Source: Mobula birostris (lineage: Eukaryota). Taken from it: a stretch of 64,000 nt of DNA. The DNA is taken from positions 44,801,130-44,865,129 of the forward strand of contig NC_092375.1 of the NCBI RefSeq assembly GCF_030028105.1. The letters are read 5' to 3'. Position numbers and translations under genes: made by a program. Positions 10,901 through 54,752 of this stretch are shown one piece after another; position 1 is the stretch's first letter, and every line of letters starts with the position of its first letter. Under the pieces are notes generated by a model. It saw nothing but the letters and a program-made list of their open reading frames with translations. It was not told the DNA's origin and searched no databases.

Positions 10901-13900
10901 TGTTACTCAGGTATTGAATAACAGTTCAATAAATAGGTGAAGGAGGATTAAGAACAACAGTAAAGAAGGCATCAGGTATCTCTCCCATTGATGAATTATC
11001 ACACCCTCTCCATGAACTGTTTGTTCTTCTGCCATCAGGCAAACATTACTGGAGCATCAAAACTAAAACCACAAGGCTACTAAACAGCTTCCTCCCACAG
11101 GCAGTTAGACTGCTAAATAGCTGCTCCACCTGACTCTGCTTTGGACACTTTTAACTTGCACTGGACACTTATAACTTGATTTTAACTGACATGTGGCTGT
11201 TCTGTTTTACTATTTATTGTTATGTTTATTATTTAGTGTTGCGTTTGTTATGTTATGATTGCACTGCTCCTGGGAAACGCTGTCTCATTCTGCCCTGCAG
11301 AGCTGATGTACGGGCAGAATGACAATAAAGTTTTTTTTTGAATTGAATTGAATTGAATAAACATTTTACCATCTACCAAAGAACACAAGATGTTGTTATA
11401 CTGTATATTTCAACTTTGTAGAAATTCTAAAGATTGCCAAAAGTGTAACTTTATTTCCACAGTCTGCATTAAAGCCAGGTAGCACTGAATAGATGTTGGT
11501 CTCTCCCTGTTGGACCCCTGTACATCTGCGTAATAATTGTCACAACCCCTGTTGTGACATGCCGCTGGTTTATTAAAGGAGAGCAGCAGCAATTTATCTT
11601 TAGTGGTTTGTACTTCTCAAAGTGAGAGAAAGTAAAAAATCATCTTATACATGTCCACCAACCTTTCATGGTCCCAGAAAACAATCAAGAAAGCCCATCA
11701 ACTGCCTCTGCTTTCTGAGGAGGCTGAAGAGAGCTCAACTGTGCACATCAATACTCATGGCCTTCTACAGATGCACAGTAGAGAGCATCCTAGCATGTTG
11801 CATCATAATACGGCATGGAAACCGTACTGCAGCTGACAGGAGGGCCCTACATCGAGTAATTAAAACTGCCCAATGCACCAGCGTCACCAGCCTACCCACC
11901 ATCAAGGACATATATACAGAAGGATGTCAGGAACATCATGAGGGATGCAAACAACAGGAATTCTGCAGATGCTGGAAATTCAAGCAACACACATCAAAGT
12001 TGCCGGTGAATGCAGCAGGCCAGGCAGCATCTCTAGGAAGAGGTACAGTCGACGTTTCAGGCCGAGACCCTTCGTCAGGACTAACAGCTAACAACTAACA
12101 GTTAGTCCTGACAAAGGGTCTCGGCCTGAAACTTCGACTGTACCTCTTCCTAGAGATGCTGCCTGGCCTGCTGCGTTCACCAGCAACTTTGATGTGTGTT
12201 ACATCATGAAGGATTCCATGCACCCTGCTTATGGACTGTTCGTCCGACTCCCATCAGGGAGATGGCTATGTAGCATCCACGCACCAGACAGAAAAACAAT
12301 TACTTTCCCATGCAGCAAGGCTGATCAATATCTCCACTCACTAACCCACCCCTCCACACTCCCACCACCACTATTTCATCATTTCCTGTCAGAGTCCCCC
12401 TATGTGCAAACACTGCTGTTCCTATGTCACTTTATGGACATACAATTAATCTATATATAAGCTATTAATGTACATTAATTATGTTTTTGTTACTGTTTGC
12501 TTTCTCTTACTGTGTTTTTTGTGCTGCATCAAATCACTTCATTCTCCTTTACGCTTGTGTCATGGCACATACATTAAGTAATCTTGAAATGCTATCAAAT
12601 ACTCCCAACTGAGCTTTGAGTGAATTAAGTCCAATTTTAAGGCTTTTTCAGTAGACCCTTAACTCTAACCTTATCAAATCATCAGCTGTGAGAACCCAAG
12701 AACATCGAGCAATTTTTCTTTTTGCCTCATTGGGCAAGGTGGATGCATAATCCATTGCTTCTATATGGTCATTGACTGGAGATCTTATTAGGATCAAGAT
12801 GTGTTTTTTCTTATACTGTATCCTAATCACTACAAAAATAAGAAAAACGATGTTAATTTCCATGCTTCATACCTGGCCGTTGAACAGTGATTTCAATCTC
12901 TTTGGACTTCTTGGAAGAGAACGCTCCTGACGCGGCTGCCTCACTCTCCTCCACGAGGCAGTGATATTTCCCACTGTCATCCACTTGAACCTGATAAAGT
13001 TTCAGAACGTATTCCCCTTCAGTTTTCTTTCTGACAGCCACCATTCCAGAATTTTCTCTCGTTCCATATTCTCCATGAAAAGACAGAACTGCATTTGGTC
13101 CAATACGAACCATCTCATTATTGTTCAAGAACCAGGTCACTGAGAAGAAACGCTGTGCAGTATTCTGAGCTTCAACTGTACAGGCTATTTCCAGTGAGCC
13201 TCCTACATTAATATTGACATTGGCTGCTTTAATTAGAACAAGAAACTCTTTACCTGCAAGGAAATTAAATGAATGCGGGTTAGTATATTGAATGTGGCCA
13301 AAAGCAAAGTGAGTAAATTTGCCATAACTTTAGTTTGATGGAAGACCAACATTTCACTGCCAAATTTGAGTATGGTGAAAATGGGACCAAATGTAACCAA
13401 CATAAGCATTCAGAGTCATGGTTTATGGTGTTCCATGGACCAGAAAGAACGGGACTATTTGTAGCCCATGATGTGCAAAAGGGTCAGAAACAGGCTCTTT
13501 GGCCCATCATGTCCATGCCAGCTATCAAACACTGCCAATAATAATCCCATTTACCAGCACTCCTTGAAGCATTCTGGATTAGTTTTAGAAGGAATGATGG
13601 AGACTATTAAGGTATATAAAACTTTACTGGGGTCCACAGGGACTCTTATTAGCTCATACAGGTGCCTCTTCATAAATAAGTTCTGTTGCATTTCAGTCAC
13701 TTCTAGTCCACAGATAAATTCAAATTAATCCAATACTCATCGTTGTTTGACTAGAAATAGTGAGGTATTATAAGCAGCATATTTTAATCATAGAGGGGGA
13801 GAACAGAACTTGGAGACAGACTTAGGGATCAAAAAGGCAAAGAAGGAATGGATGCAAATTTTAAACATTGCAATCTTCTGTCATCTCTCCCATCAAAATG

Positions 13901-16900
13901 TAAAGACCATCAGCAGCTCAATATTGGCAGCTATCCAATCTGAGTTAATAAGTGCGTATATAAAGCTTACTTTTGAAAGGTGTAGCCTGGAGCTTAAATG
14001 TTATAGCACTTTAAAAATTCAGTGTACTCCTTCTGGTTAAACCAGAAAGTACCATTGAAGATGAAACTGATCACAGCAGCAGCTGAAGTCTGCTGAGGTT
14101 TAATAGCAGTGAATCACACTCCATTAATATAATACTTGTGTTTCATCAAAGGTCAGAGTCTCTAACTTCAACAGATAATCTACATCCAAGACCACTTCCT
14201 CTATAATTAACCTGTCTGATGCATTGTTGTTCCTTATGATCTTCAGCCACTCCCATTATTAGTCAGAGTCACTGCAAGCTGGTCGCTGGTTGCTACCCAA
14301 AGGAGCAATTCAGCCACAAGCAGGGAACAATAGGAAATGTTTAGAATGTAGTTTAATAAATATAAAAATATAGTTAATGATGTCAACAAGGTCTTTAACG
14401 TAACTGCTCATGGCTGCTTATACTGGTCTCCAGAATGACATCCAATACAACTAACATATATACATTCTTGTTTATGACCTGCTTTGTTGTAATTTAGCAA
14501 AAAATCAAAGCAGAAAGCTTTGACTGAACTGATAAATGTTGCTGCCTGTCCAGGTGACCAATTCATGTTTTCAAATAACACAAATTTCTGATTCATGTTA
14601 TTTGAAAAAGAAAAATTTTTTGGAAAAAGCTGATGGCGATTTGGTGTAAGAACTGCAGGGCAGGTATCAGTATAAATAATCAGGTACTAATGAGGTTAGT
14701 AAAACCATGCACCAAGACACTCTTCTGTAAATCCTCAAAGATATCCAAGGATTGGTGAAGCATCATATCATACTGAATATGATACAAGGATCTGATCTGA
14801 AAAACAGAGACTCTATGAGTGTGTTTCTTGAGTTGCTAACCACTTCATGATGGACTACCATTGTGAATCAGTATGTAAGGCTGCACATAATTGATCCCTG
14901 ATGCCTTTAGCTCTGTTCAAATATCATTGTCGAACAGCCAGAGGGTTGTCCTTTTATTTCCAGAATCTAGCTTTTGTGGGTAGGTAGGAAACAACAAAGT
15001 AAGGTCAGTTTCCTCTTGGGTAGCTACAAATTCAATAGGAATTGATCCTGAGATGAACATACTCTCTGAAAAAGAACTAAAAGGGAGAAACATCTAGTGG
15101 AGAGTCTTGGAAGAAATAAAACAAATAAGAAGGAATGAGAGAAATTAGGAGATAGTAGTTGGGGGGAGGTGGGTTCAGAGGTGATGGTATATGGGGTAGA
15201 TCCATATTCTTGGTGCAGGAAGGTTAGGAAGCTCAAACAGGGCTTATAAATGTTGCACCAACCCCCAGATGCAATTTAAGCTGGTGTAGCTTGAAGATAC
15301 TCTGGGTTTTATATTCCGCAGCCAAACCTGACTTCTTGCCCTGTAAGTGAGTGCGGCCCCCATTAGAGGGATCAGTAGTGCCGGTATCTCACCAGAATCT
15401 ACTAATAACCCTATTCCGAGATTTATGAGAAATATAATTGCTTTCCTTATATGGCCTGAGCTTGAACTTCTCACAGATTTTCATCCTGGTGTCAAAATTT
15501 TCTTCCAGTGATGAATTTTGAGTTAATAACTGAAAATGAACTGAGACTTGGTAGTCATAAAATCTTTCACAGTATGATTTTACCATGCTGAGATCATATT
15601 GGAACATCATTATGTGCTGCAAAGAGTTTAACCACACAGGTTTATCTAGCACTTTACAAAACTGTAGTTGTAAAAGGAAATGATCCTTACCCATGCTTTT
15701 AACATTCACTGTGCTATTTTTGGTTTGTTTTTCAGTCAGTGCCTGCCAGGTCTTGTCTGGGTCTTGGATCCACTCTATACTGCGGCAGTAAAACTGCCCC
15801 TGCTCGGACATCTGCAGCTTGTGGATAGTGAGCCTGTACGAAGTGGCCCCAACCTTGTCCAGTCGCACATCTCCCTGTGCCCATCTTTGCTTATATAATT
15901 CTCCAGCACTTAGGACGAAATCTCTTGTCAGAGAGATAACTCTGATATTCTGACCATCTTTCTGTAGGTACCATGAGACGGACACATGTGTGTGGTACGT
16001 TGTTTCTTTAGATACTTCACAGACCAGTTCCAAAGGATCACCTTCTACTTTATTTATGACTTGAGGTACCAATGTTGCACTGAGCGTGTCTGGAATAACT
16101 ATAAAAATACATGTTTTAGCATGGTTTGCAGACTCCACACCGAGTAGACAAAGTTCACATACAATAATTCAGCAGTTCCATGATCTTCTCTCTCTCACTT
16201 AGAGACATTGATAAACCAGCCAGTTTTTCCATTCTGTAAATTCCTAAATTGGACATGAATCCTACCCCTGGAATTCTGAGGATTCAGAATGTGTGTGAGG
16301 GGGAAGATGATGGGAGACGATGGGAGATGATGGGAGATGATGGGAAAGTGTGTGCTCTGGTTGAATAGTACACCAATGCTGTTGAGCTAAATTTTCCACT
16401 AATGCCATTCAGGAAAAGAAACCAGCTGACACCAATTTGCTTGACCTGGAGCTTTCCTCAGCAGGTCCACTGAACTACGAATGAATGTTTCAGGAAACCT
16501 ATGACAGCCTTCTCAGGTTTCTGATAATGCTCTTAACTGCAAACAATTTCTTACAATTCCCATTAAATTCAAGCACACAGCATTTGGTGTGGCAATTTCA
16601 GACAACTTCCACTCCAACCTGGGAACAAGGAAACTAAGAGACCTCAGCAACAAAGAAAATGCTGGAGGAACTGAGCAAGTCAGGCAGCTTCTGGGTGTTT
16701 GTGGGTGGGGACGGAGAATAGGCAGCTGATGTCTTAAGTCAAGGCTCTTCATCTGGACTGAGAGTTAGAGGGGAGACAGACAGTATGAAGGGGTGGAGCG
16801 CGAGCTGGCAAGTGATAGATGGATTCAGTTGAGGAAGGGTGATAGGCAGATGGAGGAGGAAAGAGTAGAAATAATGCCTGAGGTTGGGAAGAGTTAACTA

Positions 16901-19900
16901 GAAGCGGCAAAGGGCTTCAGGTGACAGAATCTAGTGAGAAAGGAAAGTGGAGCAGGGAGTCAAACTCGGTAGGTGCGGTGTTGATATAGGAATAGTGAGG
17001 GGAAGGGGACCCTGTGAGATGGAGTTGGTGATAGAAAGGAAAGTAACAGGATAATTTGGAGACTGGGGTGGGTGTAAGAAGAACTGGGTAGATCTGGAGA
17101 AGAGAGATAATGGATGTGGGGGGAGGGGGAGGAATGTTTATCAGAATTTGGCAACTTCAACTTTCATGCCATTTAGATGTAGACTACCAGACAGAATATG
17201 TAGGAGGGTTAGGGCGGTAGGCGAGCAGCAGTCAGTAAGTCTCCTAGCCAGTTAGAAAATAGAAGAGAAGGAAGAAGATTGCAGAAGATCTACCAACAAG
17301 AATATAGATCAGGATTTCCCAACCTTTTTTAATGCAATGGACCCCTAATATTAACCGAGGGGGTTCATGGGCCCCAGGCTGGGAACCCCTGATGTAGAAA
17401 ATATAGCATTTCTAAAATAGGAGACTGATGCCAAAGAACTGGTGAATTGCAAGCACTATTACTCTGTCCTTAAAAATTAAAGAATCAATACATTAGAAGC
17501 TGACCAGCCTAACGTTGGTAGTAGATAAACTTCGAGATGTTGGAAGCAATTGGGTTAAAAATAAAATCCAGAATGGATTCTTAACAGAAGATAGCACTTG
17601 ACTTCAAATCTTTGGACAGAAGTGTGGTACGGATAGTGTGGCTATCCTTGTGTAAGTGGAGTTTCTAAAAAAATTTATTAAAGTCCCACAGATAAGATTG
17701 AAAGGGAAGCAGCTACATGGATATGAAATTGAGTCAGCTGTAAAAAAAACAGAAAGTAAAAGTCAAATGTTACTTTTCAGAATGGAGGGACGTAGGTAAT
17801 GGATCTCCCAGCATTCAGAGTTGGAACCATTGTTTTGTTGGTATCTATAATGACCTGGCCTGGGGTATAATGAATGTAAATAAAATGTAGAATTTTGCAG
17901 TTATACTCCATATCAATAACACAAAACATTTGTTCAAAGATGAGGATAAGGGCAAACTGGTGAAATAGCAAATAAAATTCAAAGGGGAGAATTATGAATT
18001 GAATCACGTGGTAGAATAAATGAGGAGGGTCAATGTTAATTAGGAGTCACAGTTTAAAAAGGAATGCTTGGAGAGGACACCAGTGAATGCTTGTGCATTG
18101 ATTTCAGTAGGGTGCTAGGAATGGCATACAAGATCCTGACCTGGGAGATGGATTAATAAGATGGAATATGGACCTTGGATATGGGAAATAAGTAAACATC
18201 TATCATAAAAGATCCCCATCACCCAGGACATGCCCTCTTCTCATTGTTGCTGTCAAGGAGGAAGTACAGAAGCATGAGGGCACACACTCAGTGATTCAGG
18301 AACAGTTTCTTCCACGCCACCATCAGATTTCTGAATGACCCATGTACACTACCTCACTCTATTTTTCCCTCCTTTTTTGAAATTACTTATTTAATTTTTA
18401 AATATATTTCTTATTTGAATTTATAGTTTTTATTTTTATGTATTGCACTGTACTGCTGCTGCAAAACAACAAATTTCATGACACATACCAGTGATATTAA
18501 ACCTGATTTTGATTCTGTCCTTGAAAATTCCAGATACTTGGCTTCTTGATTCCCTGAGGAAGGTCCATGGTGCAGTATGTCTCAACCAGTCTCTGGACTT
18601 GGAACTATATCACTAGTCCATCAGCGTTTCTGGGTCTAATTTCCTCCCTAACAGGATTGTAGGAGCACTTTCAGCAGGAGAAATGAAATGGTTCAGGATC
18701 AAAATTTTCTTATGGGCAATTGGGATTGGAAATAAGTTCCTAACTTGTCAACAACACCCAGAATCCAGAAAAAAGAAAATAAAAATGATGAACTGCCTCT
18801 TCATGAAGTGCATATTTGTGCTGAAGTATTACAGAAGTGTCATCGACGATTGACGTTATTGATGTGGCCCCAAGTCAGCATGAAACGTTTAGTCAGTACA
18901 TGGAGGACCACACTCAGTGTTCCAAAATGCAGAGCATGCCTAACCTTATTACTGATCATTTTTCAGACTTACAAAATAAAAGTGAATGGTGCTTGTAGAT
19001 CACAAGCAAGAGAAAATCTGCAGATGCTGGAAATCCAGAGCAACACACACAAAGTGCTGGAGGAACTCAGCAGGCCAGGCAGCATCTATGGAAAAGAGTA
19101 CAGTCGACGTTTTGGGCCGAGACACTTCATCAGGACTGGAGAAAAAAAGATGGGGAATCAGAGTTAGAAGATCGGGGGAAGGGAGGAAGAAATAAAAGGT
19201 AGTAGGCGATAGGTGAAACTGGGAGAGGGGACAGGTGAAGTAAAGAGCTGGGAAGTCAAATGGTGAAAGAGCTAAAGGGCTGGAGAAGGTCTGATGTCCA
19301 GAAAGGAACAGAGAACTTTGAGGCCTTCCTGATGGGGGAATGGAGGTGTATAGGATCTTGTCATTCATATTGAATGTAAGATGACCAGGGACAAAGGACT
19401 TGAAATCATTGAAAAGATCAAGATCATGTGAAATGTCATGGTTGTAGCTAGGAAGGGACTGAACCAGTGGGTATAAAACAGAGACAAGGTACGCAGATAT
19501 AAGTTTGGTGGGGCAGAAACAAGCAGGCAGGTTTGTGCATCTTGAGTAGGAGGTTGAAACCGGAGATGCGGGGTGAGGGAACTATGAGGTTTGTGGCAAT
19601 GGATGGGAGATCACCAGAGTTAATGAGGTCAGTGATGGTGTGGGAGACAATGGCCTGGTGCTCCTTAGTGGGGTCCTGTTCGAGGGGTGAGTAAAAGTAG
19701 CTGTCTGACAGTTGTTGCCCGGCCTCAGCAGAATAGGGGTAGGTCAGTCTGCCGGACCACTACAGCACCCCCCTTATCTGCAGGTTTGATGGTGAGGCGC
19801 AGGTAGATGTTGCCTCATGCAATGGTCTTTCTAGTCTATTATCCCTGGGGTTTAATCCTACTGAGGCGTTTACCATCACTCACTGGGACAAGGAGAGTTG

Positions 19901-22900
19901 CAATCAACAATGAAGGTTAATCCTATTCTTATTTTGCTTGAGATGTTTACTTATTTGATTTAGTGATCAGTGAATGTGCTTGTTTTTTCCTACATTTCCG
20001 CAGAACTCATAAATAAATCATACTTCCTTATTAGCAACTGACCTGCATTTTACATGATGTATTGCTTCTTGCTTAGTGGGATTTAAAACATTTAATAGAT
20101 TACCCAGTGTTGCACTTTAACATGCTGACAGTTTTTATAATAGTAAATTGTGCCTTGTTATGAAGCTCTGATTTAAAAGTTCTGATTTACAGATTATAAG
20201 CACATTCACAGATGATGCCTGACCTGCTGAGTGTTCTTCAGCATTTACCATTTAATTTCATTATGAAATATTGGGCTTCATGCTTTTTTAAATTCTGTAC
20301 ATGAGAACATTTCATGGAGTGTATTGCAGTTGGTGTTTAAAACAATGTTTATAACCCCATATTATTTGCATTAAAATAGGATTTGTTATGATGTGCTAAA
20401 ATTTGGATTTCTTTTATTTCAGTTATACATTGATGTATAGTTAATTAGCGGCAAATGTCTTGCTGAATGGGATGGTTATTTATAGTACAGCTGGAGAGAA
20501 AGTAGAACTCACCTGTCAAATTCACGAATGCACTATAGGTTCCCCAGTATATACTGTCGGTGTTGGGAGTGTAACACTCGTACTGTCCTTCATCAGTTTT
20601 CTGCAGATTAGTTATGTGTAACTGCGCAGAGTCACTTCCGATTCTCTCTATGTAGATCTCCTTAGCCGCCACTCTGTCTTTGTACAAGGCATAAGTGTAG
20701 TCGGAATCTTGAGTGCTGATAATTTGGATTTGAAATTTAGGTTTATTTGGAAGGGTGATAGACCACTCAAAGTTCTGCTCTTGAGACTGCTGCGTTCCGC
20801 TCACAGTGCACTGAATCGTTATGTGACGTCCTTCAGCTCGAATTAGGGGTCCTTCCTGTAATTTCACCAGCCTTTGAGCAGTGCACAGATCTGTACCAAG
20901 AAATAAACGAGAGGTAACTCAGCTCATTTCTTCTCAAAATTTGACAAAATCTTTCAAAGTAGAATTTTATTCTAATAAGCAAGAGAATGAATTATCCGAT
21001 ACAGTTTGATATAATTGTTACTTTGAATAAGTTCTGAAACAATTAAATGAACTCAAGTCCAAACAATCAGGAATAACCTCTCTGACCCCCAGCCCCTCAC
21101 TTGTGTATTGCCTCCCCCCACTCCCCTCCCCCAACCAACCAGCTCTTGCTCCAGCCCTTCCTTCTTCCTTTTTATATTGGCTATCTGCTTCCAGTCCTGA
21201 TGAAGGGTCTCAACCCAAAATGTCAACTGTCCATTTCCCCCCCATAGGCGTTGCCTGACACACCAAGTTCTTCCACCTGCAAGAGAGAATCTGCAGATGC
21301 TGGAAATCCAAGCAACACAAAATGCTGGAGGAACTCAGCAGGCCAGGCAGCATCCATGGGAAAAAGCACAGTCGACGTCTCGGCCCATTGATGCTGCTTG
21401 GCCTGTTGCGTTCCTCAGCGTTTTGTGTGTGTTGTTTGGAGTTCCTCCACCTTCCCTGTTTTGATCCAGATTTCCAGCATCTGTAGACTCTCGTAAGTGC
21501 ACAATTTATTTTATTGCTGATCACTAAATATTCACCTGTGCAGTGGTATTGTTGAGCACCGAACAAAGATTAACTTAAACAACAGGAATTCTGCAGATGC
21601 TGGAAATTCAAGCAACACACATCAAAGTTGCTGGTGAATGCAGCAGGCCAGGCAGCATCTCTAGGAAGAGGTGCAGTCGACGTTTCAGGCCGAGACCCCT
21701 CGTCAGGACAGACGTTTCAGACCGAGACCCTTCGTCAGGACGAAGGGTCTTGGCCTGAAATTTCGACTGTACCTCTTCCTAGAGATGCTGCCTGGCCTGC
21801 TGCGTTCACCAGCAACTCTCATGTGTGTTGCAAAGATTAACTTAAACTGGACTGAAAAATTCTTATTTCATAACAGCTATGTTTAAGCAAGCATTAGAAT
21901 ATGGTGACAAATAATTTTGCTATTTGAGTAGACTGGAGAAATTGAGTTTGTTTCAGACACTGGAGAAATATGGGACAAGTCTTACATAATGAAAATACAG
22001 AGAAATTGAAGGGGTGGTAACAGGGATACAGGTAAAAGAAATACTGACTACATGAGGAAAAATGTCTTGCGTTACAAGTGATTAGGTTTTACAATCAACT
22101 GCACAAGGTAGTGAATAATGAGTCAATAGTACTTGTTGAAAGGGAATTGCACAAGTACATTATAGATTAAGAATTATGGTGATATAAGAATGATAAGGGA
22201 AACAAAAGTACTTGGGATTCTTTTCAAAAGTCCTGCTCAGATTGATGAAGTGAATAGACCTCTTTTGTGCTACACTATGCACCCGTATGATTTCATCATA
22301 TGCTGTGATAACAAAATCTTTCAATTTGTGTATTGGAAAATTGACCAATGGCTGTTAAAAATTGGCCTAGCCTGAAACATTAGCTGTTTACTCTTTCCTA
22401 TAGATGCTACTGGCCTGTTGAGTTCCTCCAGCATTTTGTGAAGTGTTTTAACTGATGTACAAAAAAAATCACAGAAGGGAATTTTGTCAACCAGTTGTTG
22501 GAAACTGCAGATATGATATGGAGGACATCTTGTGTTTGTGGCTAAACTTGCCAGCTGGCTGATTCAGGGTTTACTAAGGACTCTTACTGAGTAGATCGGG
22601 GTGAGGCAACTGATTGACCTATTATGTGTAAAACGTGCTGAAACTGGAATTTCCTGCCACAAGAGCAGACTGACTGACACATTGATTAACCTTAGGAGAG
22701 GAAGTGGCTGTCAAGAAGCTGACACTCATTGGCTGAAGTGATAGAAAAGTCTTAAATGGTTATATTGCTGAGGTCAAAAATTTATAAAGAAATTGATGGA
22801 AAATTATATCACAACATTCAGGGATAGACTAATTAAAACTTGGCAATAATCAGTATCGTTTAAAGTATGGTAGCAAAATGTCAAATGTACTTTTATTCAT

Positions 22901-25900
22901 ACATAGCCCTGATTTTTCCTTCCTTGAAACAGATTTACTGGATAAACATCACGCACACAGAAGCATCGTATGCAGGTAAATGATAGCATTTATTAAGTGA
23001 AATTCAAGTTGAATTATTTAGAATTAAATTGACATTGATAGGTTTGGGGAAAAAGCATTGCACTTTCCTCAATGGTCTGCTGATCTCAGGTGGAGGCAAG
23101 GTTGCAGAAGTCTTGCAGCTGAGGTTTAGCATCTGATCTGTCTTTTGAGTGGTACACTTAGAAACCACTTCCCACTCCAGCAACTGTCAGCTTAATGAGT
23201 AACTGCACCAACTACATTTAGCAGAAATTGAAGCAAAGTTCTGTCAATCATTAACACAAGAGATTCTGCAGATACTGGAAATCCAGAGCAACAGACACAA
23301 AAGGCTGGAAGAACTCAGCAGGTCAGGTATCATCCACGGAAAGGAATAAACAGTTGGTGTTTTTGGCTGAGACCCTTTCATCAGGACTGGAAAGGAAGGG
23401 GTCAAAGCCAAAATAAAAAGGTGGAGGGCGAGGGGGGAGGAATACCAGGTAAGTGGTGATAGGTGAAGTCAGGTGGATGGGGGGAGGGGAATGAAATGAG
23501 AAGCTGGGAGGTGAGAGGTAGAGAAGGTAAAGGGCTGAAGAAGGAATCTAATAGGCGAGGAGAGTGGACCATGGGAGAAAGAGACAGAGAAGAGGCACCA
23601 GCGGGAGGTGATAAGCAGATGAGAATTAGAAAAGAGGTAAGGGGGAGCCAGAGTGGGGAATGGGAGGTGCTGGGGGGAAACTACCAGAAGTCAGCAAAAT
23701 CAGTGTCCATGCCATCAGATTGGACGCTATTCAGATGGAATATAAGGTGTTGCTCTTCTAACTTGAGATTGGTCTCACTGTGGCAGTAGATGAAGCCATG
23801 GGCCAGCACGCTGGAATGGGAAAGGGGATTGGAATTAAGATGGTTGGCCACTGGGAAATCTTCCTTGATGTGGATGGAGCAAAGGTGCTCAGCAAAGCGG
23901 TCCCCTAATTTATGTCAGGTCTGATATAGAGGAGGCCACATTGGGAGGCTGAATTCTGTCAGTCATTGCTGTCATTCAATTGTTTCTCATCAAGAGATAA
24001 TTGTATAGAATTAAGTAATTTAATAAGCATATAAAATTTTCAAACTAAAATGTGTATATTAAAGTGAATCTAGCTGATATAAAATCAACAGTGTTTATTA
24101 AATAAAGAATGAAAAAAAACTACATACATTTTATCAAGCACATAAATGGTGTCAATGTTAACATACCAGCCAAGTCTAACATGAAGATAGAAGCCAGAAA
24201 CAAAGCCTATCCCTGCCCCAGCTGGAATGACAGAGCTCCACCACTGGCCTCAGTACCACGTCCCGTGGTGGTGGGAGGTCAGATGTTCCACCATCTAACC
24301 TTGGGCACATTCTGGTTGGTGCCCTGCGCTGACCCTCAAAGGGGACCTCACCACCCATTCTCCTCTGAACTGTCAATAGAAGATAAACATCTTTCGTCCT
24401 TGTGTAATGAAGGGAGAATGGTACAACTAAAAGCACCAGCAATAAAACTCTATGTTTAAAAGAAAGAACCCAAGCCAATCTCAAGATTTTCAAAACCAAT
24501 CTGGCAATTTGAATAACACAGAAATTTTTCAGGAGTATCTTAGGCTATCAATTTTAACTGAATTGCTGTGTATCAAATGCATTTGATGAAGAGTGAGGAG
24601 GATAATTTATATAAACTCCTTTGATATTTAATAAATGAACAGTGTTAGAAACCCAGTCGTTATACAGATTGGAGTCTAGAGCCCACTGGCACTCTAAGTT
24701 ATTATGAGCCTCATCATTATGAACTCATTGAGCCAGCTGCTCACCTTTTTCTGAGTTCAGTCCTGGGATGTTTGATTGATAAGGTTCATTTGCTACAGGG
24801 GGATGTTCATTCCTCTGAGCTCTCTCTTCTGCTTTCTGGTAAATTTACTCTATACATTATGGAATAGCAATCTTAAATATTACCTCTATAAGAAACAAGA
24901 ACATGTGTCAACCATATGTTCCTTTAGCCTGCTTTGCCAATTAATACTATCATAGCTGTTAAGATCCTGATTTCAGCAATACCTTCCTGCCAGTTCCTAA
25001 TAATCTTTGGCTCCCCTGTGTTCAAAGATCTGCCAGTCTCAGTCTTGAAGTACATTTCAGCAACTCTGCCACCTCAGCTCTCAGGGAAGGGTTTCCAAAG
25101 ACCCACAAGCCTTGGAGAAAAATAAAATCCTCCTTGTCTGTCTTAAGTGGTGACTCTTCATTTTGAAACGGAGCTCCCAATACACCAATGATAGGAGCAT
25201 CCAATCAGTACCTGTCGCATCAGCACCTTTCAGAATCGTGTACGTTTCATTATTAGCTATCATTCTTCTAAACTGACAAGTACACACCCATACTGCTCAA
25301 CCTTTCTGTGTACAACAGCTCTTTCTCTGTACAGCCTTTAAATTCTGTTTAACCGAAGAGAACAGAACAAATGGTGAGATGTGGTCTCGTCAATCTGCTG
25401 CTCAGTAGCAGTAAGATTTCCCTAAACTTATATTCCATTCTGCTTGTAACAAAAACCAATGTAACCCTATCCTTCCTAATTGTTGTAATCTGCTAACTTT
25501 CTGTACAAGGTGAGCTAGACCTAATGTGCAGCTGCAGTGAGTGAACAATGCTTCTCAATAGTTTCTACCAACGTGGATAACCTTCAAATTCCCCACTATT
25601 ATACCTCATTTACTAGATTTGTCCCTCCCACTTAACCTGCCTATATCCCTTTGTGTACCCTTCTGTGCTCTCCTCACAATTTGCTTTCCCACCTTGATTT
25701 CAAAGAGTTGTACACTAAAATGACACAGGAGGCAGGAGGGAGAAGGGATTTTAAATTTTAATGACATGAACTACGACCCCACACCAAGACATACGTACCT
25801 GATACACTTGTTAGCCAATCTCATTCACCACAGTCTGCTCCTCATCCATGACCTTTCACCCCAATGTCCCACTTGCTGCCTTCCTGGTTAATGTGATCCT

Positions 25901-37900: not shown

Positions 37901-40900
37901 TCTATTTTTTTGTAAAATGCCAGACCTGCTAAAGAGGCAATCTGTAATCTCATTATAATCTATCTGGGTCACCTAGTTTAACTGGTTTGGATCAGTCAGA
38001 GTTGAAAGACACATGCACCAGGTTGGAGGTGGGGCAGAACCATGAAACAATGTTGGTTATTGCCCTGGACTAGAACCAGAAAGGTGACTCAGGCAGGTGA
38101 GGTGACCTTGAGCCAATGGGATGGAGATCCTCCAGTTCAACAGATGAGGAACACTCTAGGAGTCAGGAGCTCCAAATACATAGCAGCGACAACCCTCCAG
38201 CAACCAGAGACCAACCTTTGCAGATAAGGAGGACACATTGGACACATGGAGATCGGGACTATAAGGAACGCCTGGCCAGTGTACTCATTTCCTGGGTAAT
38301 ACCTTCTATCTTCATTGACTGCTATTGGAGGGTCAGGGATTCTAGTGGTCGTGTACGCAAGTAGTCAGTTTGTGAACCCATGCGCTTTTTAGTTGTGACA
38401 ATAAAAATTATTTGGTGGTAAATACAGATTTTTTGTGCCTCACTGATTATTACTACAAGGGGTGATTTGTGTAACAGAATATTGGCGTCCCTGCTGGGGA
38501 CTCAAGGATAAATCTCTTTGTTCAGCGGGAAACTCGAGTTGGTCCACGTGGTGAGGTACGGAGAGATCTGGAGCTGGGTAGTTAGTGGGAACTAACCCAG
38601 GATGAGGAATTCAGGAAATTCTGTAAATCCGAAGGACTTGGGATGTTTTGATTGAAGGAGATACCTCCAGAAATACATGTTGGGGAACCAGCCACAATAT
38701 GAGGAGTTTGTTGGTCACCCTGGCTGTGAATGGAAAACTGCTGGAGATGCCCCTTGTAAATTTGCCCAAGGGAAGTAATCAGGCTGGAAGTTTAAACTAT
38801 TACAAACACCAGTGGCAGTTTGCTGCCACACATACAGAATGCAGGAGGAACTCAGCAGGCCAAAGAGTACAGTCAACCTTCTGGGCTGAGACCCTTCATC
38901 AGAACTGGAGAAAAAAGATGAGGAGTCAGTGTAAGAAGGTGGGGGGGAGGGGTGAAGTGAAGAGCTGGGAAGTTGATTGGTGAAAGAGTTACAGGGCTGG
39001 AGAAGGGGAAATCTGATAGGAGAGGACAGAAGGCCATGGAAGAAAGGGAAAGGGAAGGAGCACCAGAGGGAGGAGATGGGCGGGTAAAAGATAAAGTGAG
39101 AGAGGGAATGAGGAATGGTGAAGGGGGTGCATTACTGGAAGTTTGAGGAAACGATGCTCATGCCATCAGGTTGGAGACTACCCAGATAGAATATGAGGTG
39201 TCGTTCCTCCAACCAGAGTGTGGCCTCATTGCGGCAGTAGAGGAGGCCATGTTGGAATGGGAATGGGAAGTGGAATTAAAATGGGTTGCCACTGGGATAT
39301 CCTGCTTTTTCTGGCAGATGCAGTCTCCCAATCTACATCGGGTCTTACTGATATACAGGAGGCCACACCATGAGCACCAGATACAGTAGATGACCCAAAT
39401 AGACTCATAGGTGAAGTGTCGCCTCAACCGGAAAGACTATTTGGGGCCCTGAATTGTAGGGAGGGAAGAGGTGCACGGACAGGTGTAGCACTTGTTCTGC
39501 TTGCAAGGATACGTGCCAGGAGGGAGATTGGTGGAGAGGGACAAATGGACAAAGGAGTTGTGTAGGAAGCGATCCCTGCGGAAAGCAGAAAGTGCGGAGA
39601 AGGGGGAGGGAGGGAAGGATGAGTTTGGTGGTGGGATCCCATTGGCAATGACATAAGTTCTGGAGAATTATGTGCTGGATGCAGAGGCTAGTGTTGTGGT
39701 AGGCGAGGACAAGAGGAAGCCTATCCCTGGTGAGGTGGTGAGAGGATGGGGCAAAGGCAGATGTTGACAAAATGGAAGCGATGCAGTTGATGGCAGTGTT
39801 GATAGTGGAGGAAGAGAACCCCTTTTCTTTGAAGAAGGAGTACATCTTCTCCAACCTGATGGCATGAATGTCGATTTCTCGAACTTCTGGTAATTGCCTC
39901 TACACCTTTTCCGCCATTCCCAATTCCTATTTCCCTCTCTCACTTTATCTCCTTATCTGTCCATCACCTCCCTCTGGTGCTCCTCCCCCTGTTCTTGCTT
40001 CCATGGCCTTCTGTCCTCTCCTATCAGATTCCCCCTCCTCCAGCACTTTATCTCTTTCACCAGTCGACTTCCTATCTGTTCACTCCTTCTCTCCTTCCTC
40101 CCCTTCCCAGTTTCACCCATCACTTTGTGTTTCTTCCTCCCCTCCCCCCACCTTCTAACTCTGACTCCTCATCTTTTATTTCTTTAGTCTTGATGAAGGG
40201 TCTCAGCCCTAAATGTCAACTGTACTCCTTTCCAAAGATGTTACCTGGCCTGCTGAGTTCCACCAACACATTTTGTGAATTGCTTGGATTTCCAGCATCT
40301 GCAGATTTTCTCTTGTTTGTGATTGTAGCAGTTGGCTGTTTAATTGAAGATATGATAGGATTCAGCGGCCTCAATGACTACAGACCAGTGGCATTGACCT
40401 CCCACATCATGAAGACCCTGGAGAGACTTGTTCTGGAGCTGCTCCGGCCTATGGTCAGGCCACACTTAGATCCCCTCCAGTTCGCCTACCAGCCCCGACT
40501 AGGAGTTGAGGATGCCATCGTCTTCCTGCTGAACTGTGTCTACGTCTTCCTGCTGAACTGTGTCTACACCCACCTGGACAAGCCAGCGAGCACTGTGAGC
40601 GTCATGTTTTTTGACTTCTCCAGTGCGTTCAACACCATCCTCCCTGCTCTGCTGGGGGAGAAGCTGACAGCGATGCAGGAAGATGCTTCCCTGGTGTCAT
40701 GGATTCTTGATTACCTGACTGGCAGACCACAGTACGTGTGCTTGCAACACTGTGTGTCCGACAGAGTGATCAGCAGCACTGGGGCCCCACAGGGGACTAT
40801 CTTCTCTCCTTTTCTCTTCACCATTTACACCTCGGACTTCAACTACTGCACAGAGTCTTGTCATCTTCAGAAGTTTTCTGATGACTCTGTCATAGTTGGA

Positions 40901-43900
40901 TGCATCAGCAAGGGAGATGAGGCTTAGTACAGGGCTACGGTAGGAAACTTTGTCACATGGTGTGAGCAGAATTATCTGCAGCTTAATGTGAAAAAAACTA
41001 AGGAGCTGGTGGTAGACCTGAGGAGAGCTAAGGTACCGGTGACCCCTGTTTCCAGCCAGGGGGTCAGTGTGAACATGATGGAGGATTACAAATACCTGGG
41101 GATACGAATTGACAATAAACTGGACTGGTCAAAGAACACTGAGGCTGTCTACAAGAAGGGCCAGAGCCGTCTCTATTTCCTGAGGAGACTGAGGTCCTTT
41201 AACATCTGCCGGACGATGCTGAGGATGTTCTACGAGTCTGTGGTGGCCAGAGCTATTATGTTTGCTGTTGTGTGCTGGGGCAGCAGGCTGAGGGTAGCAG
41301 ACACCAACAGAATCAACAAACTCATTCGTAAGGCTAGTGATGTTGTGGGGATGGAACTGGACTCTCTCACAGTGGTGTCTGAAAAGAGGATGCTGTCCAA
41401 GTTGCATGCCATCTTGGTCAATGTCTCCCATCCACTGCATAATGCACTGGTTGGGCACAGGAGTACATTCAGCCAGAGACTCATTCCACCGAGATGCAGC
41501 ACAGAGCGTCATAGGAAGTCATTCCTGCCTGTGGCCATCAAACTTTACAACCCCTCCCTTGGAGGGTCAGACACCCTGAGCCAATAGGCTGGCCCTGGAC
41601 TTATTTCATAATTTACTGGCATAACTTACATATTCCTATGTAACTATTTATGGTTCTTTTACTATTTATTATTTATGAAGCAACTGTAACGAAAACCAAT
41701 TTCCCCTGGGATTAATAAAGTATGACTATGACTATTAGGACAGAGTGGTAAAGCAGAATGGCACAGATGAGAAACGGAAAACGAATGTCGGCATAAAGCA
41801 GAAGCTGGGGCTTGGTGAGATAGGTTACAACAGGAAATCGTAGAATAACAGCAAAAAGCAGAAGCCGAGGGAGAGAGGTTAGAAAACGAACAGAAAAAGA
41901 GAACATAAGGAGGTTAGAAAGAGAACATAAAAGGCTCCAAAAGAAGGTAGAAACCTTCAGAGAAATAGTTACTGATTTACAGGGTTGGAGAGATATGGAC
42001 TTGATTCATATAAACCAATTTCAGTTGAAGTGCGAGAAATTACTTAAAGAAAAAGTGGAAGCAGCTGAACGATGAAGAAAGAAAAAATGGAAACAAGTGG
42101 AAGCAGCTGAACGATGAAGTGGAAGGATTAAGGAAACAGTGTGGTGATTTAAAGACGGCTTTGAATGTGATTCGGAAATCAGCACAGGAAAGAAAGAGTA
42201 ACACTCTCGATCATGCGGTGTTTAAAAGCAGATACAAAATCTACAGGACCAATTTGCTGCACAGTGAGAAACAGTGTGTGCTTTTGATCTGAACGAGGAG
42301 AGGAAGGTATTGATAGCCATGATATATCAGATGAAGCTACTAGGTACGGTCACGAAGCACCATTTCCCGAGGAACTCTCACCGACACACTCCCAACAGGA
42401 GCCGGTACTATTGTCTGCATGAATGGCGCCCCTAGTTACTATCAGAGATGGGACGGGGGGAGTCGGGGAGGAAATCAAAATCAGAACACCATACTGTACA
42501 GGGGTAGCAGCATGTGCAGGTAATTTTTTTATCTAACTGAAATGACGGTGCCCTGAATGGCACCTACAACAAAACAATTATTTACTCACCTTCTTCAGAG
42601 ACAACTAAACAGGGAGTGATTTTAAGCCAGCCAAAAATAGAAGGAAAAGAGGAATATTGGAATAAGTGGGAGCAGGTTATGCCTCAGGGGTAGCAATGGC
42701 CAACACCCTAGGTATAGTAGAATTTTTTAAAAACAGATACAGCCCCTCCAGCAAAAAGCACTGGATATTACTGGAAAACATTATCAAGATCAGGTACAAA
42801 CTGATCAGATTGGTCGAGATGCATCCTTGGTAACTCTGGATGCAGTTAAATTTCTGAAGCCCCTTCAAGACACAACAAATCTGATTATTGACTTCATGTC
42901 TAATGAAAGGCATAAAACTGAGATCTGTGGTACATATGCTAGTTGGTTGCTTACCATGACTGGCACCGATTTATTACAACTTCATGCACATGAAGTACCA
43001 AATTGGGTATCAGATGAGCAGCTAAAAGAATGGATTGGAGAAAGGGCACCATTGTGTCATTTTAGAAGCCTTACAAAAATCAACAGGGTACTGGGTACCT
43101 GTGATAAAGGTAAAGGAAGGTTTTATGTCAGAGCGGTATTCCACATTCCCTGACATGAAAATAATTCAACCTACCCTTTAAAAAGGGTTCACACCATTGG
43201 TAAATACCATGAGAAATCATGGATATCCTTAAGTAACCCACCAACACATGCTATTGTTATGAATGGTACTGGGAAAGGGATAGATTTAATAAGATGCCAT
43301 CAAGGGGGAGGACCATTGGTCTTGTCCAGAAGAAATGACAAAGCAGAAGCTTACAAATTGTGGTTTCAGTACTTATGAAAATTGTTCATTGTCTATTTTG
43401 CTTGTGAATAATCAATCTTACAATATGTATTGTTGGGACAGACATATTATATAGTAACAGCAGTCGCAGGTTATACCAAGGGATGGAAACATGCCCTTTG
43501 GAAAGTCACAATGTCGCCATAGGGAATGTGATGTTAGATCTGGCCTTCGGAGGACCAACTTTGCCTCAGACAGCAGGAGACACAGTAATGACGGAGAATT
43601 TCAAGATCCAACACACTGATACAGATGAATATCTGTGAGACAACATTGTTACAGAGTTGCCACCAATTCCTCACTTAACTGCAGACTGGACATGTGTTGT
43701 GGAAGAGGCAAGGGAGATAATCCATCAATGGACTAACCACATTAAAGAAATTAAAACACCAGCTGTTATTATGAAATATTGAGTGACCCAGGCTTTTGGA
43801 GTAAGCTTTGGAACTGGGGAACAAATGTTCAATTACATCCGTGGGTGAGAATAGTATCACATGCTGCTGTAATACTAATTTTATATAACCTGATACTTGT

Positions 43901-46900: not shown

Positions 46901-49900
46901 TTCATTGCTGAAAGGATAACGGTAGTAAGGTTTGGTTCCCTAATGAAAACCTTTATCAGAGACAATATACTGTATATTTTTATATAATAAAATATGCATT
47001 GACAGAAGTAACTTTGCAGATACCATTTACTAAACAAATATTGCTACCACTATGTTTTAGTTGAATTGCCAGGTGCACTGGAAGGAAAAAAATATTAAAA
47101 TAATATTACTGGGAAAAGAATGACCAGTGAAGTCATTGGGCCCATTAGAGAAAACAGGGGCAATCTGTACACGAGGACAGAAGATATAGGTGAGATCCTG
47201 AATCAATATTTTTCAACTGTATTCACAAAGGAAATAGTTGGAGAATTCGGTGAAGGGATAGGTGAGAACATAGTGCAGATTTTCATAAATAGACAAGATG
47301 TTCTTAATGCCTTTGCAGACTTAAAGATGGATGACCTTGAAAACATTTTGAAGGACACCTTCAAAAGGCAATGACTCAAAAAAGCGGCATCCATCTTTAA
47401 AGACCTCCATCACCCTGGACATAACCTCTTCTCATTGCTACCATGAAAGAGAAGGTACAAGAGCCTGAAGATGCAAATTCAACATTTCAGGAACAGCATC
47501 TTCCCCTTCACCATCAGACTTCTGAATGGACAATGAACCCATGATTACTACCTCAGTATTTTCCCTCTTTTTCTGCACTACTTATTTAATTTAATTATAT
47601 ATATATACTTACTGTAATTTATAGCTTTCATTATTATGTATTGCAAAGTACCGCTGCCGCAAAACAACAAATTTCACAACTTATGCGAATGATATTAAAC
47701 CTGATTCTGATTGTGATAAATCCCTAGAACCATCTCGCGTCTTTTCCTCTGACCACCTAGCGTTCTGCTGATAGAGCTCAGAGTAGAACACCTCTTTCAC
47801 AAATTGACTATACAAATGCTATTGTGTAGTAATCAGAACTAATTGGGGTACTTTAATCACAGTTATAAGGATGTTGATATTTGTTTGCTTACCCTACCAC
47901 TGGAGGATTTTACACAGGCATCATTACTAATATCACCCGCCCCCCCCCCCCACTCCTGTGTTTTGATGCACCCACTCTATGTGGTCCATGTCAAAAAAGG
48001 ATTGAGGAGGGCAATAGTCATTACTGCCTGATAGACCATGAAACTTGTTTAGGGTTAAAGGTCCTGATCTTCAAACATTGTCTTCCTCAGATAGCCAGAC
48101 GCTGTGTTGACACACCAGAAGCAACGCAGCATTATCAGCAAATTTCATCATTAATGTGTGCTTTTGTTGAGAGCTGTCTCTCAAGATAAAGTGTGCATTT
48201 TCCACACTTTCCAGGATTTGTTGCAAATCTTTACTGTTGGAGGACAGAGCTGTACTTTGGGGTAGGTTGGTACAGCATCAAGATTTTTCAGATATTAAAG
48301 AGATTTCTCAGGCTTAGTAAACAAGACTTGAATATCCAAGCAGAGCGTGCACACTGTGACTCAAGCAACACACGCAAAATGCTGGTGGAACACAGCAGGC
48401 CAGGCAGCATCTATAGGAAGAAATACAGTCAACTCAAAGTTGGAGCACTGGCAATCAAGGATCAATGTCTTTTTATTCCATGGATTTACTCTGCTCCAAT
48501 GGGAAGTTAGCTGAAGGTTAGGTTCAATAGCAATGCCATGAGAACGACTACAAAATACTGGGCCAATGACAAAACTTGCTGACCAAGAACCTGCACTGAG
48601 ATTACATCTGCTATAATGCATTGCTTAAATTCACAGCTTGAAATGCCATCGAGAAGCAGATGCTACATGGAGGTAAATAGATGTAAGCATTCAATCGGAG
48701 AAGAAAATTCCACAAGGAAGCAGTCTTTATCATAAGAACACAAAGATGAAGACATCATACTGCAATATAATGTCGCTGAATATTATGAAATAGTCTGTTC
48801 TACCCAAAGGAAAAATACAATAACGATAGAGCAAGTACAACAATGTTTCAGCAGAATGGGACAAAGCACAAGAGACTACAAATGTTGGAAACTAGAGCAG
48901 AGTCCTGCTGGAGGGTCTTCACCCAAAAATGTTGACCATCCCTCAGGTGCTGCCTGATCTGCTGATTTCAATCAGATCAGGAGGGATGCTCTGTTAGATG
49001 CAATTTTGCAGACTGGGCCTATAGGCTCTTGAGTTTAAAATAATGGGAGACAATCTTGTTAAAAAGTATATTCAGGGGTTGTCAGATGACATACAGGGAT
49101 AATGTTTTCCTTGGGTCTGTTGTCTACAACCAGGAGTCACTGTCACAAAATATAGGCCCCGCCATTCAGGACTGAGAGGGAAAAAAAAACCCTTCACTAG
49201 GGTAGTGAATCATTTCAATCCTCTGAGCCTGTGGCGGCTCAGTCAAAAGTCTATTCAAAACCAAAGATCAATAGATTTTTGGACATTAAGAGAATCGATG
49301 GATTAGTGCAGCGAGGAGGCACTTAAGTAAAAGGTTAGCCGTAATGTTACTGAATAGAGGAGCCAGAATGAGGAGCCAAATAACTTCTATTTCTAATTAA
49401 ATGATTTAAATTCATGAGACCTAATCCATAAATAATTACTGTTAGATCTTTGACTGCATACCTAGATGTCATGGATGTAGATAACAAACATTTTCAAAAC
49501 CATTTCATTCAAAATGATCTGTTGCAGTGATTAGAGTAGCTGTTGTGAATTAACAGACATACTGATCACTGTAGGGAAAATATTGTTTTGCCAGGTTAAA
49601 GGAAGACTAAAATTTATCCAAGTCTACACAACCACAATAACATTGTGAATTTTGGATCAGATTGGCAAGCCTGAGAGAGCCACACTAATTTTTCAGAGCA
49701 CTAGTGTGAAATTCAGAACAAGATTTAGAACTGCATTTCTAAAGAAATTCTGACTAACTGCTGGGTCTTTTACCATGTTTCTCTGTCGGTTGTTGTTGTC
49801 ACACTTGCTAAATTGTTTCCACAATTTTCAGGTTTTATTTGCAATAGCAAATGTTTAATAACATAGCGCCTGGGATACATGGTCACTGTCACCTATCACA

Positions 49901-53900: not shown

Positions 53901-54564
53901 TATGCATTGCACGCAAGTCACAGCCTCAGCGTGGTTTAGAAGGGCATCTCTGACAAGCTGCCGGACTCCTGGGAGGGAAAGAAAAAGACTTGATGAGGGG
54001 CTGTCTGTCACTGCATGTTTTGAGCTGGTTCACGACACAAAGGTGGTTCAAAGGTATTCCCTGACACAACAGCATCTAGTGTGTTGCATGACCTGCTTGA
54101 TCATGGTCTGTTTCTCCTTTTCCTTCTAGTAAATCAGAAAGAGAGATTCCACAGGAAAACCCAGTGGTGATTAGGGTGAAGGGCCAGAACAACCAGAACA
54201 AATGATGAAAGAATGCAAAAGGTGAAAACCCAAATATCGGTAAAACAAGGAAGTGGGATTGAAAAATTGAATATGCTTCCTCCCTTGATTGCAATCTTTA
54301 CATAGTTTAGCTGTCATTGCTTGGCAACCTTAGAAAATTATAAAGGCATGATTACAAAGGCCTACTAACTTAGTCCACCAGCATTACTTAATCATTTTCT
54401 GCCATTCACCTTACATACAGTGCTACTGTCACTTTATGTATATATAATCAATCTAAAGTATGTATATAAGCTTGATTGATGTATTTATTTGGGGTGTTTT
54501 TTATTATTGTGCTCTTTTTCTTATTTTTTTGTGCAGCATCAGATCTGGAGTGACAATTATTTCA

Positions 54565-54752
54565 GGCCAAGCAGCATCTGTAGGAAGAGGTGCAGTCGAC
54601 GTTTCAGGCCGAGACCCTTCGTCAGGACGAAGGGTCTCGGCCTGAAACGTCGACTGCACCTCTTCCTACAGATGCTGCTTGGCCTGCTGCGTTCACCAGC
54701 AACTTTGATGTGTGTTGCTTGAATTTCCAGCATCTGCAGAATTCCTGTTTTT
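54565..54752. mobile_element. Fold-back PLE-derived mini-element no. 3 (perfect 61-bp arms)
   Basis: 54563-54623 is the exact reverse complement of 54626-54686, spacer AG. Direct repeat TGACAATTATTTCA at 54551-54564 and 54753-54766. Confidence 0.9.
54594..54628 (-). ncRNA. Minimal type I hammerhead motif (intact core, 3-bp stem I)
   Basis: Minus strand GTC-CTGACGA-AGG(GTCTCGG)CCT-GAAA-CG-TC/GACTG. Confidence 0.7.

Follow-up and report, generated by a model that had tools for sequence, protein, structure and literature searches.

Short two-armed insertions of a Neptune-type Penelope-like element in a myliobatiform ray: evidence favoring independent assembly

How do hairpin-shaped retroelement insertions arise, by copying of a hairpin that is itself mobile or by assembly at each site of integration? 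The question is raised by a 64,000-nucleotide stretch of the Mobula birostris genome (contig NC_092375.1, positions 44,801,130 to 44,865,129 of the forward strand; hereafter the window, numbered from its first letter). It contains minus-strand exons encoding immunoglobulin domains, together with numerous fragments of LINEs (long interspersed nuclear elements) as well as of Penelope-like elements (PLEs), and hairpin-shaped insertions sit in introns of this ray gene. Three of these hairpins are short insertions with two arms, derived from a Neptune-type PLE of this myliobatiform ray, and the evidence favors their independent assembly: it is likely that each was built anew at its own integration and was not copied from a hairpin master.

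Anatomy of the hairpins and their parent element

Positions in the element are counted from +1, which is window position 12081 on the minus strand (the first G of the hammerhead GTCC); the predicted cleavage site lies after +31. The three insertions are the following.

Copy 1, 11947 to 12200, no single strand: tailed arm 11947-12085 (sense on the minus strand), 13-nt spacer, and tail-less inverted arm 12099-12200; inside a LINE 3' fragment.
Copy 2, 21581 to 21830, no single strand: tailed arm to +1, an extra A, a 31-nt repeat of +31 to +1 (21711-21741), and a tail-less inverted arm, with GAC microhomology.
Copy 3, 54565 to 54752, no single strand: short arm +66 to +1 and long tailed arm +6 to +134, with the GAC junction of copy 2; inside a LINE 3' tail.

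A preliminary description of the window had reported these insertions with target site duplications (TSDs) of 14 to 17 bp, and our analysis bears this out. The TSD of copy 1 is 14 bp with one mismatch (11933-11946 and 12201-12214), that of copy 2 is an exact 17 bp (21564-21580 and 21831-21847; 13 bp excluding the left microhomology, 4 nt at the left and 1 nt at the right matching the element too), and that of copy 3 is an exact 14 bp (54551-54564 and 54753-54766). In a chance control, which was a looser test, 7 of 3,000 random coordinate pairs had a repeat of at least 11 nt with at most one mismatch near both ends. Copies 1 and 3 split LINE fragments, uninterrupted paralogues of which lie at 402-670 and 783-896. 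The arms of copy 1 run from +135 to -4 and, after the spacer, inverted from -6 to +96; those of copy 2 run from +133 to +1 and, after the additional A and the 31-nt repeat, inverted from +6 to +97/98. Copy 1 accordingly pivots at -4/-6, and copies 2 and 3 pivot at +1/+6, which agrees with the earlier placement of the turn-around near the 5' edge of the hammerhead; copies 1 and 2 do not have the same junction. Describing each insertion as terminal sequence plus an inverted copy only, as had been done, captures the basic layout and omits the spacer of copy 1 and the 32-nt duplication of copy 2, the latter being the only one of 13 rows in a tandem-repeat table that touches the element. A pivot at the cleavage site was ruled out, the pivots lying 23 to 37 nt upstream of that site.

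Two details of the junctions deserve mention. In the copy 1 spacer (12086-12098), CTAAC, the last five templated bases, is present twice more, in a manner resembling re-priming at the template end or a templated repair insertion. The duplication in copy 2 (21710-21741), which one extra A precedes, is exactly +1 to +31, the piece that a hammerhead cut would free from an RNA whose first nucleotide is +1. It may stem from a jump to a cleaved RNA template; the match may also be due to chance, the go-back joints listed from public contigs (see below) having other landing points, from +34 to +77.

Palindromic DNA is difficult to sequence, and no listed contig bridges the copy 1 junction with 31 nt on both sides. 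That the hairpins are fold-back artefacts of assembly or sequencing is nevertheless highly improbable, given the TSDs at both ends, the uninterrupted LINE paralogues, arms that differ at up to 8 of 93 sites, and the same layout in old, diverged copies.

The parent element can be recognized in longer copies. At 29834-30737, 38826-39857, and 23253-23953, the terminal repeat is joined to a GIY-YIG endonuclease that is C-terminal and whose motif contains two cysteines, and the endonuclease-linked frames at these loci are 54 to 83% identical to ray protein P0005. The protein relatives named, with a top identity of 83%, come from Mobula hypostoma and Hypanus sabinus. Upstream of GIY-YIG, a CX4CxxC motif is present in the frame 30312-30839 and in proteins P0005, P0006, and P0008. 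In passages of Craig et al. (2021, PMC8557442), a CX2-5CxxC motif in this position is ascribed to Neptune and Nematis, with Penelope and Poseidon lacking it. By its CX4CxxC linker the element would be of the Neptune type, Nematis also being compatible with the motif alone; a first assignment to the Poseidon clade was dropped once the linker had been seen. Two degraded endonuclease frames that were tested gave no Pfam match.

One line of the feature list concerns the ribozyme.

12047 to 12082, minus strand: minimal type I hammerhead, the sole intact one found in the window (4-bp helix I, CUGACGA, helix II, GAAA, palindromic ACGU, GUC).

This hammerhead, at 12082 in the long arm of copy 1, is a predicted ribozyme. 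Its full minimal motif was the single descriptor match in the window on both strands, with none in 50 shuffles, and is retained in only one of the six arms of copies 1 to 3. Rfam listed no hammerhead family at an E value of ≤1; its only matches were to microRNA precursors and were subthreshold, as is expected for any long hairpin. The arms of the copy 3 hairpin RNA are predicted to pair together at -147.5 kcal/mol. Pattern scans of metagenome contigs, viral contigs, and prokaryotic genomes gave no matches, and a search of public sequencing runs listed no RNA run with the repeat.

On the minus strand at 11948-12085, one frame of 46 codons is open over the entire terminal repeat, with no start codon. 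A Mobula hypostoma STARD3NL isoform model includes this open frame and exits near the tail-less end. A protein search with the frame matched one of four candidates and is uninformative on splice-acceptor use.

Outer ends, inner end, and the wider family

The short hairpins form the lower end of a single series of insertion sizes, of which the window holds the following further members and relatives.

Copy 4, 1424 to 1701, no single strand, older subfamily: tail-less arm (+99) that extends upstream into the body, a piece of the body in inverted orientation, and lastly only the tail, +102 to +138; TSD of 13 bp, one mismatch.
9041 to 9161, minus strand: single-armed short copy, absent from the preliminary description, +131 to +10, no inverted arm; TSD of 11 bp, one mismatch.
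21279 to 21439, no single strand: fifth hairpin (copy 5), older subfamily, pivot +19/+48, inserted in an older related terminal repeat; TSD of 13 bp, one mismatch.
23253 to 23953, minus strand: single-armed tailed copy of 0.7 kb with endonuclease remnant; TSD of 14 bp, one mismatch.
29834 to 30878, minus strand: longer copy with terminal repeat and GIY-YIG endonuclease with CX4CxxC linker (83% identity to a Mobula hypostoma protein), the upstream 0.14 kb inverted; no convincing TSD.
38826 to 40324, no single strand: long-armed two-armed insert of 1.5 kb, tail-less arm (+98) of about 1.0 kb that extends as far as the thumb region of the reverse transcriptase, with a tailed arm of about 0.48 kb; TSD of 14 bp, two mismatches.
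48867 to 48970, no single strand: diverged relative, inverted tail-like piece (seen by eye, below the alignment threshold), then sense terminal repeat from -1; no TSD found.

Six insertions in the window, ranging from 190 to 1,500 bp, are two-armed and TSD flanked (copies 1 to 4, 21279-21439, and 38826-40324). In all six, exactly one end carries a tail, of 35 to 39 nt (about 37), and in five of the six the opposite, tail-less end lies at +96 to about +102. The 3' ends of 24 aligned pieces at 18 loci fall at +131 to +139 in 11 cases, at +96 to +99 in 7, and elsewhere in 6, and five of the seven pieces ending at +96 to +99 belong to older copies other than copies 1 and 2. The nearly identical end point of copies 1 and 2 (+96 and +97/98), to which the preliminary description drew attention, is thus real and is not diagnostic, being the known family-wide tail-less PLE end. 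Passages of Craig et al. and of Arkhipova et al. (2013, PMC3846280) describe a PLE tail of 30 to 40 bp, frequently on one end only, and in the Anolis element, according to passages of Frangieh et al. (2024, PMC11167929), the tail lies between two reverse-transcription start sites. The earlier view that the insertions are PLE derived, retrotransposed, and TSD flanked and not the outcome of random truncation is correct. The same description had counted copy 4 as a fourth PLE-derived insert with a 13-bp TSD, which holds with one mismatch in the TSD; copy 4 is no simple hairpin.

The TSDs of eight inserts measure 11, 13, 13, 14, 14, 14, 14, and 17 bp. None convincing was found at about 4.2k, 16.6k, 19k, 22.4k, 29.8k, 48.4k, or 48.9k, and a candidate TSD of the 29834 copy at 32042 was rejected as it sits inside the frame of another LINE. 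The inverted upstream segment (30735-30878) of that copy, the longest to bear an endonuclease, is adjacent in sequence, resembling twin priming on a single RNA. Older inserts pivot elsewhere, in the upstream body in two longer inserts and at +19/+48 in the older hairpin. The end of the short arm of copy 3, +66 (window 12016), recurs in three listed public-contig joints and is possibly a third priming site.

For the inner end, contigs of four public runs (37,593, 84,546, 17,508, and 5,399 contigs) were placed on one arm plus the left flank. Run X1 may be the same sample as the window, the RNA status of run X10 is guessed, and summed contig depth does not equal copy number. In X1, 131 contigs quit the arm at +1 and continue in long stretches that are unlike one another (median of 255 nt, agreement of 0.32), and 144 do so at the tail end; in X10, 22 quit at +1 and 22 at the tail end. 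Each of the four runs also has loose ends at -1, which partly continue into the upstream sequence of the older subfamily. In all three listed opposite-strand joints, one side falls at -1, +1, or +2 and its partner at +66, +43, or +96, both sides being taken as right-hand ends because the alternative reading leaves fewer than 20 letters. Listed go-back joints from +1/-1 land at +34, +36, +38, +50, and +77; the inserted-letter rows listed were 12 of 86. The single-armed, TSD-flanked copy at 9041-9161 ends at +10. Overall, the pivot, at about +1, is a family-wide end, single-armed copies included.

Three further observations come from individual contigs. In the two runs that list it (X1 and X10), the loose-end consensus at +1 begins with C, as copying of a cap would give. 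One X10 contig joins +43 to +1 (12039 and 12081) on opposite strands at a depth of 1673, with a depth of 0 in the three other runs, and may represent an expressed locus or a library artefact. Run X5 has three single-contig joints between host LINE and the tail region (11914-11986), 25 to 35 nt left of the copy 1 site, which are probably other insertions into paralogous LINE copies. For organisms B and C, where empty sites were the question, no listed piece crosses from flank into element with 31 nt to each side of the junction.

Several features of the element meet at the pivot. It coincides with the 5' edge of hammerhead helix I, and the site resembles an initiator. A pyrimidine tract followed by AG just before +2, like a splice acceptor, is present in all seven printed copies that cross the pivot (including 29955-30010), and a branch-point-like motif lies upstream in one X5 loose-end consensus. 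Conservation of the AG is no proof of a splice acceptor, because the AG also belongs to helix I. In Drosophila virilis Penelope, a passage of Cervera and De la Pena (2014, PMC4209133) maps the end of an intron to the 5' end of helix I. We think that the 5' end of the RNA is the likeliest cause of the stop at +1, because copies 1 to 3 show no exon-like sequence beyond the pivot.

Shared variants and the question of a hairpin master

The preliminary description took shared end points and shared variants as signs that the hairpin itself is a mobilized unit. The end points give this proposal no support, because the whole family, hairpin or not, uses both of them, and none of the three pairs of copies shares junction, both ends, and arm-specific variants together. 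Copies 2 and 3 have the junction in common and differ in the end of the short arm (+97/98 versus +66) and at +29, +49, and +59, whereas copies 1 and 2 have the short-arm end and a T at +29 in common and differ in the junction and at +37 of the long arm. Copy 3 has the junction of copy 2 without its variants, and therefore this junction arises more than once. The two arms of copy 2 differ from each other at the common family variants +37 (27%) and +71 (33%). The +71 variant in the long arms of copies 1 and 2 is carried by about one-third of the family and the C at +37 by 27% (X1), and because both are common neither is diagnostic.

What remains is the G-to-T change at +29. As originally reported, it is present in the second arms of both copies 1 and 2 (12133 and 21762), with an accompanying C-to-T change at +28 in copy 2. 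This variant is rare and real, is unlikely to be shared by chance, and is the sole surviving item of the evidence for a mobile hairpin, and independent assembly does not explain it.

Several points weigh against independent assembly by priming on two strands. The T at +29 is absent from the variants listed at ≥1% in any of the four runs; at the same position a C-to-T change is countable, at 8.7% in X1. This frequency of <1% is valid only for contigs with a countable site, variants at 12055 and beyond being unlisted though they must exist, and an edge effect may hide the T in short arms of the copy 2/3 type. Chance sharing of the T is expected 0.01 to 0.09 times for seven arms at assumed transversion rates of 0.3 to 1% per site. 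Corresponding arms of copies 1 and 2 show slightly fewer differences (3/133 and 5/91) than do the arms within each copy (5/102 and 8/93). The arms of copy 3, which show no differences over 61 nt and include the rare +59 variant, fit fold-back of one cDNA as well as they fit two cDNAs copied from a single RNA. The in vitro experiments on which our proposed route leans concerned a Poseidon-clade element and, in passages of PMC11167929, yielded no two-armed inserts. Finally, of the public-contig evidence, 15 of the 46 joints and 24 of the 919 loose-end rows were listed.

On the reading of the preliminary description, a hairpin RNA would itself be retrotransposed as a nonautonomous family, copies 1 and 2 being sisters whose junctions were remodeled later. 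In a more elaborate, improbable version, the Neptune-type enzyme would reverse transcribe a hairpin RNA that combines a tailed arm with an inverted arm rendered ribozyme dead by the T at +29, with the single-stranded tail as start site, and a palindromic, nonautonomous retroelement whose loop is remodeled in each round would spread, again with copies 1 and 2 as sisters. The rare T in both short arms and an A at +71 in both long arms speak for such a family, as do the near-equal total lengths and slightly closer matching arms of copies 1 and 2, and loss of 31 nt between two GAC motifs of the copy 1 junction could yield the copy 2/3 junction. The shared ends, however, are family wide, copy 3 has the junction of copy 2 minus its variants, the long arms of copies 1 and 2 differ at +37, and no source flank has been carried over beside any TSD. 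Furthermore, none of the three listed opposite-strand joints matches the junction of copy 1 or of copies 2 and 3, a weak point since the contigs are short and break at palindromes and 15 of the 46 joints were listed. We regard a retrotransposed hairpin family as improbable.

A possible, if tentative, addition to independent assembly is that copies 1 and 2, neighbors 9.6 kb apart in the same orientation, arose separately and that later gene conversion moved part of the short arm. At both +29 and +37, the short arm of copy 2 agrees with that of copy 1 and disagrees with the long arm of copy 2; on the other side, the short arms still differ at 5 of 91 sites, and two sequences cannot reveal the boundary of a conversion tract. 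As sources of the T at +29, in a judgement that was not computed, gene conversion might plausibly be entertained, coincidence and a rare, ribozyme-dead template lineage are each doubtful, and a shared hairpin source is unlikely.

Elsewhere in the window, a separate and unrelated short palindrome lies at 26833-26899; it is similar to the ends of Tc1-type miniature elements. A 37-bp tandem array (63370-64000; 17 copies, 99% identity) runs off the end of the window and adjoins a 67-bp array at 62904-63120, and two 552-nt LINE pieces, 96% identical, lie in opposite orientation 14.5 kb apart (41056-41607 and 56151-56702). Among the minus-strand exons at 4342-20918, which resemble IGSF3, both exons tested encode immunoglobulin V-set/I-set domains. 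Copy 1 sits between immunoglobulin exons, so its hairpin would be in the pre-mRNA.

A proposed route of assembly and its relation to known elements

With moderate confidence, we propose that the arms are made by priming on two strands and are then joined through microhomology. The GIY-YIG endonuclease would nick both target strands 11 to 17 bp apart, the distances given by the observed TSDs. Reverse transcription would then start from both nicks at two fixed sites on the RNA, about +133 (tail) and about +97 (tail-less), where the ends are observed and where priming would resemble that of the lizard element in vitro. Both cDNAs, made on an uncleaved RNA template, would tend to terminate where the 5' edge of helix I lies, the observed end positions being -4 to +2. 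Their ends would anneal through the 2 to 3 nt of microhomology seen at the junctions, sometimes after short re-copying, and fill-in would follow; survival of one cDNA only would leave a single-armed copy. The uncut hammerhead core that is kept and the short re-copied pieces in copies 1 and 2 belong to the observations on which this scheme is built. According to passages of PMC11167929, the Anolis PLE protein in vitro cleaves and extends both strands, two adjacent internal start sites set the tail, and uncleaved RNA is used.

The alternative route, also of independent origin, is that a single cDNA doubles back at the 5' edge and is then copied into the inverted arm; for rotifer Penelope, an antisense template has been proposed in this role. 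In its favor, the arms of copy 3 are identical over 61 nt, including a +59 variant unlisted at 1%, and self-priming is proposed for palindromic head-to-head junctions in passages of PMC3846280. Fold-back would, however, require junction loops of merely 1 to 2 nt. At the copy 2/3 junction, GAC pairs with GTC 2 nt away, and a forced alternative with a 4-nt loop costs +1.5 kcal/mol; this spacing is too tight for an intramolecular loop, and annealing between two cDNAs is therefore favored. Moreover, the inverted arm ends at +96 to about +102 in five of six inserts, like a start site, and the arms of copy 2 differ at common variants, which fits two RNA templates. A tail-only arm, found in copy 4 and at a +96/+2 joint of run X5, is not a fold-back product and fits two primers on one RNA. 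We consider fold-back rather unlikely.

By the features tested, the ray insertions have the canonical layout of endonuclease-bearing PLEs and are of an already published kind, here in a ray. Passages of Craig et al. (PMC8557442) and Arkhipova et al. (PMC3846280) likewise describe an inverted, 5'-truncated copy beside the terminal repeat, a 30- to 40-bp tail that is often one ended, a head-to-head palindrome or short overlap, and TSDs of variable length. The ray arms of copies 1 to 3 differ in being cut down to the last 66 to 135 nt, without coding sequence, and the ray TSDs measure 11 to 17 bp versus 8 to 10 bp for rotifer PLEs in the rotifer passages. PAc, the Poseidon element of Anolis carolinensis, shares with the ray element a hammerhead near the 5' edge of the repeat, two start sites that delimit the tail, cutting and extension of both strands, and an uncleaved template, as set out in passages of Frangieh et al. 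(PMC11167929). In contrast to PAc, the ray element is of the Neptune type as judged from its CX4CxxC linker, the stem-loop that holds its inner start site is GU rich and not AC rich (the fold being no better than shuffles), and the hammerhead core of its young subfamily has no start codon; the passages of that paper do not derive two-armed inserts.

In passages of PMC4209133, metazoan PLE minimal type I hammerheads have a short helix I, no helix III loop, and a palindromic 15.2-16.2, as in the ray, and in Schistosoma hammerhead pairs lie on opposite strands 100 to 700 bp apart; the ray hairpins differ in keeping the full motif in one of six arms, the arms pairing instead. Non-LTR retrozymes, as described in passages of PMC7229834 and bioRxiv 10.64898/2026.07.22.740005, are similarly small, noncoding, hammerhead bearing, PLE related, and dispersed, but they form head-to-tail tandems that yield circular RNAs, whereas the ray inserts are head to head and nontandem. 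A non-LTR retrozyme was ruled out, the element containing no head-to-tail tandem units with hammerheads.

Miniature inverted-repeat transposable elements have inverted repeats reaching both termini, a short TSD of fixed length, and uniform copies. An element of this class was rejected: the ends are asymmetric, with 35 to 39 extra nt (copies 1 and 2) or 68 (copy 3) on one end, the TSDs vary from 13 to 17 bp, and three copies have three internal structures. Twin priming by L1 also involves two nicks, two primers, and an inverted piece joined by microhomology inside one TSD, with arms that are adjacent parts of one RNA. Unlike those, the arms of copies 1, 2, 3, and 5 and of 38826-40324 overlap, the same stretch having been copied twice.

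We found no description of a retrotransposed palindromic or PLE hairpin family in the literature searched, which was mostly without subscription papers; a hairpin master, if true, would amount to a palindromic element spread by retrotransposition, of which no counterpart is described there. Passages of PMC8557442 and PMC11167929 treat as unresolved how PLEs come by their inverted arms and by tails on one side. Tens of thousands of contigs per DNA run carry the repeat, and short inserts preserve both start sites, the stop site, and the joint. The ray inserts thus offer material with which to separate two-strand priming from fold-back and to distinguish the possible causes of the stop, namely, the RNA 5' end, a splice acceptor, and the ribozyme helix.

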